A DNA stretch of 35,026 nucleotides from a virus (Duplodnaviria > Heunggongvirae > Uroviricota > Caudoviricetes): positions 1-35,026 of IMG/VR virus record IMGVR_UViG_2698536657_000017; one strand, given 5' to 3'. Made by a program: the position numbers. Below are positions 1 to 9,000 of the stretch, in pieces; position 1 is the first letter of the stretch, and the number at the start of each line of letters is the position of its first letter.

Positions 1-3000
1 TTAGTCTTTATCTGCCGGACTTAAGGTCACAGAAGAGAGATAATTCAGCAGGGCGATATCGTTCTCGACACCCAGCTTCATCATCGCAGATTTCTTCTGG
101 CTACTGATGGTTTTAATACTGCGGTTCAGCTTTTTAGCGATCTCGGTCACCAGGAAGCCTTCCGCAAACAGGCGCAGAACTTCACTCTCTTTTGGGGAGA
201 GACGCTTGTCACCGTAACCACCAGCACTGATTTTTTCCAACAGGCGAGAAACGCTTTCCGGGGTAAATTTCTTCCCTTTCTGCAGCGCGGCGAGAGCTTT
301 CGGCAGATCGGTCGGTGCACCTTGTTTCAGCACGATCCCTTCGATATCCAGATCCAATACCGCACTAAGAATCGCCGGGTTGTTGTTCATGGTCAGAACA
401 ATGATCGACAGGCTTGGGAAATGGCGCTTGATGTACTTGATTAAGGTAATGCCATCGCCGTACTTATCGCCAGGCATGGAGAGATCGGTAATCAACACAT
501 GCGCATCCAGTTTCGGCAGGTTGTTGATCAGTGCTGTAGAGTCTTCAAATTCGCCGACAACATTCACCCACTCAATTTGCTCAAGTGATTTGCGAATACC
601 GAACAAGACTATCGGATGGTCATCGGCAATAATTACGTTCATATTGTTCATGTACTTGTACCTATGTATTAACTATTTGATTTTAAAAATATATTCTATG
701 CTTTGTTTAGTCGTTGGGGCACCTGTGGGACATAAGTACATAGCTTTCTGTTTAGTACTTCTACCTGGGACTGGTTATTGTCTTTCATCCATGCACCGTA
801 AACATTGTAAACCATCTGGGCATTCGCATGTCCCATCTGGTTGGCTATGAAGTTTGGATTTGCTCCGGCAGTTAAAGCCCAGCAAGCATAAGTATGCCGA
901 GACTGATACGCTTTTCTATGGCGAATTTTTGCTCGTTTTAATGCAGATTCCCATGTTCTGTTGATGGATGTTACGGCATAATGAACTCCTGAGTTACCTG
1001 TGCGATCTAATATCTGAGGATTGAAAACAAAGCTGCATGAGTGAGTGCTTGTCCGGCCATACTCTCGCAGCTTTACTTCTATCTGATATTGTTTACCAAG
1101 CCTGGTTAATGTCGCCTGATTTTTTAATACGTCAATTGCTGGCTGTATGAGTTGTATTACCCTGTTTGTTCCTGCATCTGTTTTGGGTAGTGTAAATTCC
1201 TTTGTCTGAGTGTAATTCCTTTTGACGGTCAAGGTACCCGCTTCCAGATCGATATCCTCCCATGCCAGCCCACACAGTTCGCCATGCCGCATCCCGGTAT
1301 ATACAGCCAGCGACCAGAAATTTTTAGTTTGCTGGTGGTGGCACGCATCAATCAGTCTGGCAAACTCATCTTTTGTTAGTGGATCGGGAGGTGTTTTCGC
1401 TCTTTTCAGTGATGGAAGCTCACTGAAAGGGTTTTTGCCTATATACCCATTGTTTGCCGCAAAACGGAACATCCCGGAGATAATTGTCATATAGCTATTT
1501 ACAGTAGGTACACTACGACCTTTAATAGGCTTCCTCTGATTTTTTCCTGGCAACTGATATCCCGTTAATAATTCTTTACGAAAAATGAGAACATCTTCCT
1601 GTGTAATTGATGATGCCAGTTTGTTCCCTCCAAGGCAGTCAAGGCAATTTCGGATAGCTGATTTGTATCTGACCATGGCATTTGCTGTTATTTCCATTTT
1701 CTTAAGCTCAAGCCATTTTTCCGAAAGTGCCTTAATGGTTATCTCTTTTTTTCCCAGACCAAAGTGTTTCAGGTTAGGGGAATTAGGGAACTGCGCGGCG
1801 TAGTCGAAGCTCCCCATTCTGATTGCAAAACAAACGGAAGTACGAAGTTCACCTGCGATCTTCCGGTTTTTGGCGGTGTCAGGAACACCGAGGTTTTCTC
1901 TGACACGTTTGCCGTTATAGTGAAACCATATGCGGAGTGATCCGCCATGGTTTTCAACGCCTGTCGGGTATGATGCGTTACTCATTAAACCTCCCAGACG
2001 TCCAGGAGCATTAACAGGTTAACCGGAACTTGCATTTTTGGCACCTGGTTGTTTCTGGTTTTCGATCCAGCGCATAATTTCCTCAATGTTGTATACACAT
2101 TCACTGAAAGGCCCGGGCTCTCCTTCTGCTGCGTAATGACGGTATTCTTTCCCCAGTAACCAGGATTTTTTTCTTGCTCTGGCAATGGTTCCTGATTTCA
2201 GTCCAGTTGCAGCAATAAGGGTTCTTTCTGTGCACCATTTGCTGGGCGTTATCTGATAGATGATTGTTTCCATTCCTGACTCACACTATCTTCAGGCCAC
2301 GGCAGTGGCACCACACGTCAAACATTCGCTTTACAACTTCACGGCAGTAGAAGCCGTGAGCATCTCTGGTTAAATCGTATCGGTACCCGTATCTGAGTCG
2401 TATCCATATTTCAAACTCGCGATTCACGACTTATTCTCCTGCTGTCTTTATGCCAGTTCATCCGGTTGCGCTGGGGCCCAGGCCTTCCGTGGCCTGTATT
2501 TGCGGCGTTTTCTGGCTTCAATGCGTATCTTTGTCACCCTGACTGGCTTTGGTTCGTGCCGGAACACTTTGTTTCTGATATTACGCCGTGTATTCATCAT
2601 CCAGATAAAACGCTGGGTATGGTCGCATCCGTCATCAACGGTAATTACTGTGCGGACCAGTTCATCGTTAATATCAACCATTTCACCCATTCACTGAGCC
2701 CTCATACGCGAATTTCGTGGCTTCCATCAGTTGCGTCCATACCCATTCAAGAAATTGTGCGTTTTCTCCTGAGCGGTCATATTCATCGACGCTGCGGGGC
2801 TTGATGGTCGCCAGTAGTGGCACAATCCGGTACTTCATCTGTTCGGTTAACTTGTCCGGTACAAGTCGCCAGCCGTTATATTTCGATGGAACATGGTGGT
2901 ATTCAGCCAGGAAGCGTCGTATATCGTTTTTCATTTCCTCGCATGAGTTCTGATCATGAAGTGCAGCGGAAAGCCAGCGTCCGATATATTCAGGGATTCG

Positions 3001-6000: not shown

Positions 6001-9000
6001 AATCGAGTTCGTATTTATGAAAAGCACGGTCGATTCCGGCATTATTTATTGCACTGTATTCCGCATCACTGAAGAAAGGTGGAAATACGATGTATCCTTC
6101 CATTGTCAGCGCCAGAACGCGCGGATCGGTTTCTGTCAGCCATTCGTTTTCTGTGAATTCTTCAGAATTAATTTCAATGATTTCAGGTTCTTCTTTCATG
6201 GTTACTCCGTGTTCATCCGGTGTTAATTACTTTTATTCACTCTGAGCGCAGCCAGAAGATGTGGCTCAGCAATTCGTTTGTTGCGATATATCTGTGATAC
6301 AGCCTGGCCTTTTCAGGTCGTAAAAATCCCCGACAATAAAGCTGTAAATTAATTACTGTTCTTAAATAATGTTATTCGTTTTCAGTCCGGCACAGATGCT
6401 TTTCTGCTTTGTCTGCTGTACAGGATAATGAGCGGAAAAGACAATTCATCATGTTTAGCGCATCTGGTGAACCAATATCACCGCTGTCAATAATCACCTG
6501 TAACAAAGACAGGCTTTCTGTTATCTCGCAGTGGACATTATCGAGTACTTCAACGCAATTATTCATTTTTCATTATCTCCGTTATTCCGGGGGAGGAGCT
6601 ATGCTGTTAATGATTAACGCATCCGGTAATATGCCCCTCTTTAATGTAATCGATGCATTCATTCAAAAGTTCATCAATGATTAACTTTCCTGATTCAGTC
6701 AGATACTCACCATGTTGGTTGATACCGACAGCATCCTGGTATGCAGTGCGTATTGCTGTTTCACCATCTTTCCGCCCAAACTCACCACGGGTAACGCCTT
6801 CAAATCGTAATAGCAACTGGCTTATGAACTGTTCTGTTATTTCAATAGTTGTTAACTCTCCATCATGACGCTTTACAGTGAGGAGATTACTTCCTGTTTT
6901 TCGTTTCATCCGCCGCAGTGCTGCAACCGTTATGCGGCGACGATATGCAGAAATGTATTCATCTTTCATTTGTTATTTCCCGTATGCCTTTTTGAGAAAC
7001 AATACTGCAACTGACCAGTATCCGGCATCAGCCATTAATAAAGCGGTTTTATAGGCATGTTTGTTTTTCATGTGTCATCCCCATTTTAAAATAGTGAGAA
7101 CTCCCGACCGCAGACCGTCATGTTTTTATGTATGATTGTCTGTTTAATTTCCTTTATTCGTTCTCAGAGCATCAACATACTCGTAAGCCTTTTCACAGGT
7201 TTTATTCATGGAACGAATCAGACAAAGTAAGAAATCATCTGTCTCTCCGTTATCACCAGAGTTTTTAAATATAAACTCAAGCATTGACGTGTTTTCTTTT
7301 ATTTCTGCTGCCACTTCCTCAAGCATAATCAGGGGAGTTTTCATGTTCTTTGTTCCTTAAATGCATCGCATGCGCTTCTGGCGTATTGTTGTGCCAGTAA
7401 AAATATGTCATCCGAAAGTTCATCACATTCTTCATCACCGGAAGCCGAAATGATTAACCCCGCTTCAAGCAGTACTGCAATGTGATGAAAAGCTGTTTCC
7501 GGTTCGTTGGTGAGGCCTTTGAACATTTTCATCTTACGATTCCTTTGTCGTGTCAGAATGGAAACTTGTAAGTAACCACATCGGATCGCAGTCAAGTATA
7601 TTTGCCAGAGGAATCACCTGGCTTGCCAGAGGTTCAGCCTTGCCGTTCTCCCACTGGATGATGGTTTCTTCATCAACTCCAAGCAGCGTGGCGAGTTCAG
7701 CGGTGGATAGACCGCAGCTTTCGCGTTGGGTGCGGATGCCATCACGGCAATCTTTTTTGTTTCTCGGAGGTAACAGAATATGTTTTAGTTGTTGGATTTT
7801 TTCGATTCCAACCTCAAGGAGTACGTGACGGTTTCTTTCCGATACAGACTCCAGACTTTCATGAAGCAGCGATTCTACTTGTTCGATAAGCATCAATTGT
7901 GAAGTAGACATAAAAAAACCTCGTAACCAATATTTCGAAATCTAGGTTACGAGTGAGTAATGTAGGTGTCAAGAGCAATTAATGTTTTTTGTTGAATTAA
8001 ATTTGCATACGCATCTCAACGACAACACCAATAATTTCACAATCCCCATTGATGGGGATCAGTGGATAGCGTGGGTTTAGTGGCTTTAGGAAACATTGCC
8101 CAGCGTCTTCTATGTACTGTTTAAGGGTTGCCTCTCCGGAGTTTTTGAGCCTGGCGACGACATATTTTCCTGAAAAAACTTCTTTGTCAGGGTTAACAAG
8201 AATGTTCATGCCTTCAAAAATAGAGAACTCTCCATTCTGTGATGTCATTGAGTCCCCTTTCACTTCCAGCCAGAAGCCGTGATCGCCCGCATATATATCG
8301 CTACCAATCCATTCTTCTGGATAAGCTATGTAATCTTCGCAGTTCCAGGGGCCAGCACTCACCCATGTTAGTTTCGGATATCTATAACGGTTTGGAGAAA
8401 CTGGCTTAGGATTTCGGACGTTTTGAATGCTATCTGTAGGTGATGGGGCGCTGCCGTCAAGAAGCCATTTAGGAGAGCATTTCAATGCATCCGCGATTCT
8501 AAATAGGTTTGAAGATCTTGTGTCTTGTGAGTCTCCTAACTCTATTTTGCTGATTGTTACACGCGAGACACCAGTCAATTTTGCCAGGTCATCTTGTGAC
8601 ATTCCTAGCTGTACTCTGCGCATTAACAGTCTGCCACCAAAGCTATCGTGATCCATCTTCTCCCCCTTCTTGTCGAAATAATCGTTTCGAAACAAATATA
8701 GCAAAAAATCTTGAAATCTAGGTTTCGGAAAATTAAGATTAATCGAAACAAACGTGTCGAGGTGGATATGGATTTGTATGAAATTCTAAAAAACATGTTT
8801 GGATCGAATGTTGAAATAGGTCGTTATTTTCCCCGAAGGGGAAGGGCTAGAACCGGACAGGCTGTAGGTAAGTGGAAAACCCGAGGTGTGCCGGAAGACG
8901 TGGCGATCCTTTGTCATCTGGATCCCAAAATTCCTTATCAGCATCCGTCGCTCATGAATGCCAGTCATGAATCGTGATGTTCTGCCGGAGGCTGTATGTC

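Follow-up and report, generated by a model that had tools for sequence, protein, structure and literature searches.

A probable exo-xis-like block of accessory genes in the leftward early operon of a lambdoid Escherichia coli prophage without a recognizable recombination module

What does the leftward early operon of a lambdoid prophage encode if it holds no recombination module? This question is raised by an Escherichia coli prophage in the IMG/VR virus record IMGVR_UViG_2698536657_000017 (Caudoviricetes), whose positions 1 to 35,026 (35,026 nucleotides [nt]; hereafter, the window) we analyzed. Seven genes lie at 2448-6199, between the excisionase gene xis and a cluster of small paralogs. A first reading of the window, made from the sequence only, had described this region as filled with unassignable genes and as a hotspot for defense and anti-defense cargo. 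We conclude that 2448-6199 is probably the ordinary accessory, exo-xis-like distal half of the leftward early operon in a recombinase-less lineage of lambdoid E. coli prophages.

Seven packed genes and the search for a recombination module

The seven genes are as follows.

2448-2681 (alternative start 2690, 80 amino acids [aa]), minus strand: g77, called as an open reading frame (ORF) and by the Prokaryotic Genome Annotation Pipeline (PGAP); phrog_4183
2683-3585, minus strand: g300, matching phrog_24401 over its full length; Ea22-type mosaic
3582-3806, minus strand: g74, the PGAP coding sequence WP_000587146.1; phrog_1001 at 1e-30
3823-4185, minus strand: g120, Pfam DUF5406
4178-5047, minus strand: g289, ORF6N domain with a weak KilAC/ANT match
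5068-5652, minus strand: g194, an acidic protein of 194 aa (isoelectric point [pI] 4.6)
5639-6199, minus strand: g186, phrog_1886 at 8e-43 over residues 50-179

Every ORF named in the sequence-only reading is present in the ORF list at its coordinates on the minus strand, and the RefSeq/PGAP annotation of a 99.9%-identical E. coli prophage (strain 2013C-3033) makes the same gene calls across 2448-6199. All of the named genes are real, but the inventory had missed the 74-aa g74. Each of the seven products matches a PHROG family (E from 1e-6 to 1e-217), which shows that the genes are genuine and conserved in phages. The successive stop-to-start spacings are -14, +20, -8, +16, -4, +1, +20, and +7 nt, which makes this one packed operon; the start of g194 is overlapped by g186 (14 nt) and the start of g300 by g74 (4 nt). 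On the minus strand of 1900-9000, a weak consensus scan found neither a promoter-like site nor, inside the operon, a terminator-like site (the sole terminator-like site of that strand is within the integrase gene, int), which fits a single leftward transcript. The DUF5406 gene is split by ISEc8, an insertion sequence (IS) of the IS66 family, in several sibling prophages, and g300 is split by IS4 in a sibling prophage (related loci L118, 2224-5036; L018, 6924-7064; L119, 1084-3424), so both genes are dispensable in the lysogen. In strain STEC2018-553, ISEc8 marks the end of the DUF5406 gene, and what lies beyond is a different set of genes.

We searched for recombination genes with four profile databases: Pfam-A (at E ≤ 0.1), PHROGs, NCBIfam, and PADLOC. 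Neither the seven proteins nor their neighbors matched the RecT/Red-beta, Erf, Sak, YqaJ/Exo, RecE, Gam, or Abc families. We also used tblastn to compare a panel of 26 early-left proteins from lambda, P22, and Gifsy-2 with the whole 35-kb window and with 89 related loci. There were zero matches to Exo, Bet, Gam, Ral, Kil, CIII, N, Erf, Arf, Abc1, Abc2, RecT, or RecE in the window or in the related loci, and Ea22 was the only member of the panel with a match in the window. Searches of PDB with the region's proteins, by sequence and by profile, were negative. This region yielded no single-strand annealing protein (of the RecT/Red-beta, Erf, or Sak/Rad52 type), no partner exonuclease (lambda Exo/YqaJ or RecE), and no RecBCD inhibitor (Gam or Abc2). 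In the right arm, the position of the nin region has no ORF of at least 70 aa and no recombinase, so NinB- and NinG-type genes are absent. Overall, neither the prophage nor its relatives have a Red, RecET, or Erf module.

The sequence-only reading had likewise seen no Exo/Bet/Gam-, RecT-, or Erf-like product, and the profile databases and tblastn bear this out: no profile search assigned an ordinary recombination or replication function to these ORFs, and none of the seven genes belongs to a known recombination, replication, defense, or anti-restriction family. Most of the products do lack an assignable function, as it had said, but g120 can be named as Pfam DUF5406. The profile and structure checks that it had proposed gave the names DUF5406 and ORF6N, and they gave two confident structural models (g194 and g120) without structural relatives in fold searches.

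A recombination function could also be hidden from profiles. The genes g186 and g194, which are translationally coupled and occupy the place of exo-bet, might encode a novel annealing protein or recombination-mediator pair that is too diverged to be recognized. No known recombinase is found in the lineage, and the overlapping pair is adjacent in four further phages, with g186 directly upstream of a g194 homolog in KPP5665-2, CharmingMan, EKP1, and AsXd-1. Also, g186 has an acidic N-terminal extension, a conserved core of about 130 aa with an R-H-G motif, and then a strongly basic C-terminal helix (consensus RRLRRILARKRE). However, g194 is acidic, with just 7% lysine plus arginine and few conserved basic residues; its many invariant residues include W71-R72-W73, F79, E82, N87-G88, and N94. 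The structural model of g194 is confident (predicted local distance difference test [pLDDT] 87.4, predicted template modeling score [pTM] 0.83), but a search of BFVD with it found nothing at E ≤ 1e-3 and no match to an annotated recombinase. A weak fold match to the Sak annealing protein spans just 55 of the 194 residues, with 2% identity, and lacks sequence support; Rad52, RecT, and Red-beta are absent among the 60 fold matches listed. Pfam RecT, Erf, DUF1071, and YqaJ have no match in g186, in g194, or in the 63 relatives that were scanned. Furthermore, the two genes can be found apart: 76 of 87 loci have g194 but no g186, whereas Fels-1, Fraca, and S107 have g186 but no g194. We consider it highly improbable that this pair is a cryptic recombination system.

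We rejected two other assignments for g194. Matches to the MbcA/DUF2384 antitoxin domain are weak and lack sequence support, and we did not rely on them. DUF1980_C has weak matches in 22 of 36 relatives of g194 (best E = 0.0035), which we judged to be one chance match that is repeated among close relatives. In the homolog searches, the g194 query alone gave three close matches; concatenated seed alignments were then used, with two families per search, and the yield for g186 stayed shallow.

The sequence-only reading had pointed out g186 as a Cys/His-rich protein. The composition is as described (6 Cys and 9 His, or 8.1%), and the products of two nearby genes, g48 (10.4%) and g64 (10.9%), are richer. 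But this is not a feature of the family. Among 29 aligned homologs, only R75-H76-G77 and A88 are near-invariant, so H76 is the only such residue among the cysteines and histidines. Outside of the close E. coli group, most relatives have other residues in place of C67 and C74; C82 and C140 are substituted in some relatives, and C169 and C185 belong to a poorly conserved tail. Because the cysteines are not conserved across the homologs, a metal-binding (zinc-finger-like) reading is not supported. PDB profile and Pfam scans with g186 were negative, and a full HMMER scan found only 44 relatives among 1.84 billion cluster representatives, all of them stand-alone proteins of at most 181 aa. A search for related loci with g186 alone found only four near-identical loci. 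A plus-strand ORF at 4286-4846 also encodes 186 aa and is Cys/His-rich (7 Cys and 6 His), so it could be mistaken for g186. We rejected it both as a gene and as the protein that had been meant: located wholly within g289, in antisense, it is a shadow ORF that matches no PHROG family and that PGAP does not call.

Conserved backbone and swappable cargo

Protein searches of phage collections revealed a recurrent gene order: a g120b-like gene, a small ORF, a g186-like gene, a g194-like gene, an ORF6N protein, a g74-like gene, a g48-like gene, xis, and int. This order is found in Klebsiella phage KPP5665-2, E. coli phages CharmingMan and Fraca, Aeromonas phage AsXd-1, "Elizabethkingia" phage EKP1, and Salmonella phage Fels-1, with integrases that are 65-70% identical (only 27% for EKP1). 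In phiP27, ASU11, and many phages that encode Shiga toxin (Stx1 or Stx2), g194-like and DUF5406 genes are beside g48-xis-int instead. Judging from these comparisons, the window merges two backbones, a phiP27/Stx type (g194, DUF5406, g48, xis, and int) and a Fels-1/Klebsiella/Aeromonas type (g120b, g186, g194, ORF6N, and g74), and one rare cassette, g77 plus g300, is added to them. The flanking genes on the left side of the window are as follows.

696-1985, minus strand: int, tyrosine integrase (Pfam and ORF list)
2019-2273, minus strand: xis, DUF1233 excisionase (Pfam, PHROGs, and PGAP), at the conserved distal end of the operon
2281-2427, minus strand: g48 (phrog_3871 and PGAP), also at the conserved distal end
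6372-6566, minus strand: g64, small acidic paralog of 64 aa (phrog_6882), in the proximal part of the leftward operon
6607-6969, minus strand: g120b (phrog_1737), between the paralogs g64 and g66
7144-7344, minus strand: g66, small acidic paralog of 66 aa (phrog_6882)
within 6372-8656, minus strand: g63 and the helix-turn-helix protein g125, in the proximal part of the same operon
7997-8656, minus strand: LexA-family CI-type repressor, at the proximal end of the leftward operon region

The "small-paralog cluster" that bounded the region in the sequence-only reading corresponds to g64 and g66, which share phrog_6882 and flank g120b. We assign g120b itself to the conserved Fels-1/Klebsiella-type backbone.

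The most widely shared gene of the backbone is g194, which is present in 36 phage records and 237 IMG/VR stretches. Across 89 loci with g194, we found DUF5406 in 72, g48 in 82, ORF6N in 34, g186 in 11, g74 in seven, and g77 and g300 in four, which are near-identical IMG/VR siblings (by tblastn). Although g74 is in few of these loci, it is also a backbone gene: it encodes a basic protein of 74 aa, and homologs that are 44-59% identical are at the same position in Fels-1, CharmingMan, and KPP5665-2. In Serratia and Photorhabdus prophages, a related ORF of 73 aa lies about 600 nt downstream of DUF5406. A 95%-identical relative of the prophage at yecE has xis, a remnant of DUF4222, and then DUF5406, and it lacks g48, g77, g300, and g74. 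Among close relatives, only this g48-g77-g300-g74 block has a patchy distribution. Given the conserved order, the counts across loci, and the relative at yecE, only the xis-proximal block, and especially g77-g300, acts as swappable cargo. The description of the region as a cargo hotspot therefore does not hold: most of the genes recur as backbone beside xis-int, and only g77 and g300 are confined to near-identical siblings.

The differences between close relatives near xis, together with the rarity of the g77-g300 cassette, would also be expected if these genes were defense or superinfection-exclusion cargo that is expressed in the lysogen and protects the host. In addition, the ORF6N protein g289 matches a candidate defense family in PADLOC (PDC-S05, at 6e-11). 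But the match to PDC-S05 is limited to the generic ORF6N domain, and the other six proteins have no match in PADLOC. Also, the genes are co-oriented and packed in a repressor-controlled leftward operon, and the weak scan described above found neither a promoter-like site on their strand nor a terminator-like site among them. We think that a role in defense of the lysogen is very unlikely.

Candidate functions of the products

The clearest link to a lambda protein is in g300. Its residues 1-45 are 40% identical to residues 1-45 of lambda Ea22 (E = 6e-9 by BLASTP, and tblastn agrees), and the Pfam family Ead_Ea22 matches at 14.5 bits, which is below the cutoff of 27. Beyond residue 45, there is no significant alignment to Ea22, including its solved C-terminal domain (an alpha/beta dimer). 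We found no tblastn match to g300 in 50,697 GenBank phage records, and a PDB sequence search was empty. So g300 is a mosaic of the Ea22 type, with 45 Ea22-homologous N-terminal residues and about 250 unique residues. Ea22 of lambda is a tetrameric early protein from the exo-xis region that favors lysogeny, and its homologs vary mainly in the C-terminal domain (PMC7093339, PMC10834534). The other gene of the cassette, g77, encodes a basic protein of 77 aa (pI 10.9) whose C-terminal tail is rich in Lys and Arg; its residues 15-64 match phrog_4183 at 1e-6, and Pfam, NCBIfam, and PADLOC have no match.

The sequence-only reading had called g289 antirepressor-like, and its domains agree. Pfam ORF6N (PF10543) matches residues 17-103 at 80.5 bits (the cutoff is 27.8), while KilAC/ANT (PF03374) matches residues 174-259 at 16.2 bits, below the cutoff of 25.3. 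Thirteen PHROG families match g289, and 11 of these are named anti-repressor (the best at 6e-47). One of them, phrog_63 ("anti-repressor Ant"), aligns across residues 11-284 at 1.6e-39. No sequence relative is in PDB. "Antirepressor-like" is a fair label for the predicted architecture, as distinct from a demonstrated activity.

For g120, a D/E-rich protein of 120 aa, a DNA-mimic type of anti-restriction factor had been suggested. The composition was described correctly (16.7% aspartate plus glutamate [D+E], 3.3% lysine plus arginine, and pI 4.05), but there is no positive evidence for mimicry beyond acidity and mobility. Five other early-left products (g64, g66, g63, g194, and g125) also have pI < 5, so acidity is not distinctive at this locus. 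DUF5406 (PF17400) matches g120 at 72 bits (the cutoff is 25) across the full-length profile (1-116), and the family's invariant motifs, M-x-Y-D-P-N, G-N-x-T-G, and W-L..M-L-I.A-E-I, are present in g120 and its homologs. An AlphaFold2 model, built with nine sequences, has a mean pLDDT of 82.8, with values mostly above 90 for residues 21-118 and the topology bb-a-bbb-a-b. Sequence and profile searches of PDB found no relatives of g120, and in the literature library that was searched there was no paper on DUF5406 or on the RefSeq protein accessions.

DUF5406 is found on a wide range of elements: Stx/phiP27-type prophages, the linear phage-plasmid phiHAP-1 of Halomonas, 200-kb Pseudomonas phages, Yersinia plasmids, Serratia, Photorhabdus, Citrobacter, alphaproteobacteria, and a metagenome-assembled genome of Treponema. 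In phiHAP-1 (locus L014, 2770-3366) and Pseudomonas phage Peetri (locus L015, 2138-2764), it forms the C-terminal part of proteins of about 200 aa, whose N-terminal 85-120 or so residues have no match in Pfam. A metagenomic homolog (P0118) has a C-terminal extension of about 100 aa after the domain.

Could the acidic DUF5406 protein, and possibly g194, be an early inhibitor of restriction or of RecBCD that resembles a DNA mimic and takes the role of Gam, Abc2, or Ral? In all 13 of the DUF5406 cores that we compared, net charge is negative (-7 to -16, with pI 4.05-4.6), and conserved acidic positions (D12, D92-E93-D94, E98, and E109) include a patch at D92-E93-D94...E98. DUF5406 is a stand-alone, single-domain gene, and across 18 loci it had no conserved partner gene; its spread across such different mobile elements would suit an inhibitor of this kind. 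Because the lineage has no recognizable Gam, Abc, or Ral, a countermeasure to RecBCD or to restriction may be hidden among its uncharacterized proteins. On the other hand, g120 is related neither in sequence nor in fold to a known or solved DNA mimic or anti-restriction protein, and it matches none of the anti-restriction families in PHROGs. The D+E content of the cores, at 17-23%, is well under that of classical mimics such as Ocr (about 29%). The acidity is matched by the five other early-left proteins, the gene is disrupted by IS elements in several sibling prophages, and on Yersinia plasmids we saw no leading-region anti-restriction genes (ardA, psiB, or ssb-type) beside it. In view of this evidence, an anti-restriction or anti-RecBCD role is unlikely. 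The more specific proposal is that DUF5406 is a new family of stand-alone acidic inhibitors, with a fold that has no solved relative, which neutralizes a host nuclease or immune system early, and that either DUF5406 or the orphan g194 supplies the anti-RecBCD or anti-restriction function here. We regard this as a long shot.

We therefore return to the accessory, exo-xis-like reading of the operon. Under this reading, transcription would run from a repressor-controlled promoter near 8700 towards xis-int, and the seven products would be accessory early proteins of the lambda exo-xis kind, whose synthesis would await induction or infection. They would bind host or phage proteins or DNA and would bias the lysis-lysogeny decision and host physiology, with no role in phage DNA metabolism; recombination would be left to RecA-dependent pathways of the host. 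Action through binding to host or phage factors is probable. The ORF6N-KilAC protein g289 may be a DNA-binding regulator or a protein of the antirepressor type, g300 may be a pro-lysogenic oligomer that resembles Ea22 and carries a novel effector domain at its C-terminus, and the acidic proteins DUF5406 and g194 may be stoichiometric binders or inhibitors of partners that are probably basic.

Several considerations weigh against this account. The terms "accessory" and "regulatory" are deduced from position, size, the N-terminal match to Ea22, and the absence of enzyme signatures, and a novel recombination or anti-defense activity may escape both homology and fold searches. Only six clusters of g194 proteins are represented among the 89 related loci, so few independent lineages are behind the counts, and consensus scans for promoters and terminators are weak evidence. 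The caveat in the sequence-only reading that none of its functional calls was better than a guess was fair.

As it stands, the region matters little: these are typical hypothetical early genes, and they are annotated identically in RefSeq E. coli, phiP27, Fels-1, and Stx phages. What appeared to be a hotspot for cargo is mostly conserved backbone, with the g300 and g77 pair as the only swappable cargo. A whole group of lambdoid phages, Stx-converting phages among them, has no recognizable recombinase, Gam/Abc, or Ral. Because DUF5406 and the g194 family are modeled confidently, have no structural relatives, and are widespread in the early regions of Stx phages, they would be a sensible place to begin functional screens.

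Genomic setting and comparison with known systems

In all matching genomes, the prophage adjoins rcsB-rcsC. By megablast, 11 of 5,426 complete E. coli genomes contain positions 1900-6400 of the window, with 99.2-99.9% identity. The right arm encodes a helicase, a primase, a Q-like antiterminator, hok/sok, a methyltransferase, and lysis genes. Features beyond the leftward operon are as follows.

1-651, minus strand: rcsB; the window begins at its stop codon, and the prophage is directly upstream of it
9934-12562, plus strand: DEAD/DEAH-box helicase and toprim primase (replication genes), instead of lambda O/P
13480-13929, plus strand: Q-like antiterminator gene
13960-14284, plus strand: hok/sok-type toxin-antitoxin locus, just 3' of the Q-like gene (Rfam sok RNA at 108 bits, overlapping a MokW/Hok-like ORF at 14072-14284)
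14459-16543, plus strand: DNA methyltransferase of 694 aa (phrog_13671)
16603-17139 and 17202-17723, plus strand: two adjacent ORFs just 3' of the methyltransferase, matching the N- and C-terminal halves of one 361-aa family (phrog_12160)
18465-18670 (153 bits) and 18732-18945 (200 bits), plus strand: two tandem copies of the small RNA STnc100, upstream of a 636-aa phrog_143 protein and the lysis genes

The match to E. coli chromosomes that lack the prophage stops at position 654 of the window (junction 654/655), 3 nt upstream of the ATG of rcsB (651), so the native rcsD-rcsB junction, with the ribosome-binding site and the upstream promoter, is replaced by phage DNA. The stop codon of int is 45 nt away, and the arrangement is found in only 13 of the 5,426 complete genomes. 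A helicase is also in Fels-1 and KPP5665-2, and a primase/helicase is in CharmingMan, in each case beyond cro-like regulator genes. The two ORFs with phrog_12160 are probably one gene that was split by a stop codon or a frameshift. STnc100 and phrog_143 are at the position where Stx phages hold their toxin genes.

How does 2448-6199 compare with known systems? With lambda Red, RecET, and the Erf module of P22, it shares only genomic position, in the leftward early operon between the repressor and xis; by Pfam, PHROGs, tblastn, and fold search, the annealing protein, the exonuclease, and the RecBCD inhibitor of those modules are absent. Like the DNA mimics T7 Ocr and ArdA and the RecBCD inhibitors lambda Gam and P22 Abc2, g120 is small, acidic, predicted to be early, and present on diverse mobile elements, but its charge density is lower and its predicted fold is a mixed alpha/beta sandwich, in contrast to the elongated, helical shape of the mimics Ocr and Gam. 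Antirepressors of the Ant/KilA/Bro type combine ORF6N or KilA-N with KilAC/ANT. In g289, ORF6N is clear and anti-repressor PHROGs match most of its length, but KilAC/ANT is sub-threshold, and the gene's place is the early-left operon, not an immI-like or nin region.

The same families in the same order, also annotated as hypothetical, are found in phiP27 (L02-L08), in Stx1 and Stx2 phages at yecE and ompW, and in Fels-1, KPP5665-2, CharmingMan, and Fraca, with 65-70% identity between the integrases; seven phages show synteny together with integrases of this identity. The window differs from these phages in that the phiP27-type genes (g194 and DUF5406) are joined to genes of the Fels-1/Klebsiella type (g120b, g186, and g74) and to g77-g300. 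It also lacks the SPFH/Band-7 gene that is in the early-left region of phiP27 (locus L003, 5917-7156) and Fraca (locus L012, 4584-5411); in phiP27, this gene overlaps the start of the DUF5406 gene.

Finally, lambda has exo-bet-gam upstream of its exo-xis region (ea22, ea8.5, orf60a, orf61, and orf63), and this phage has nothing equivalent. Homologs of ea8.5, orf60a, orf61, and orf63 are also absent here, and the C-terminal 250 or so residues of g300 are unrelated to those of Ea22. But the place is the same, in the distal part of the pL operon beside xis-int, and so is the content, a series of small early genes that bear no enzymatic signatures. In lambda, ea22 and the other exo-xis genes modulate lysogenization and induction and the lysis-lysogeny decision (PMC3824215, PMC7093339, PMC10834534).

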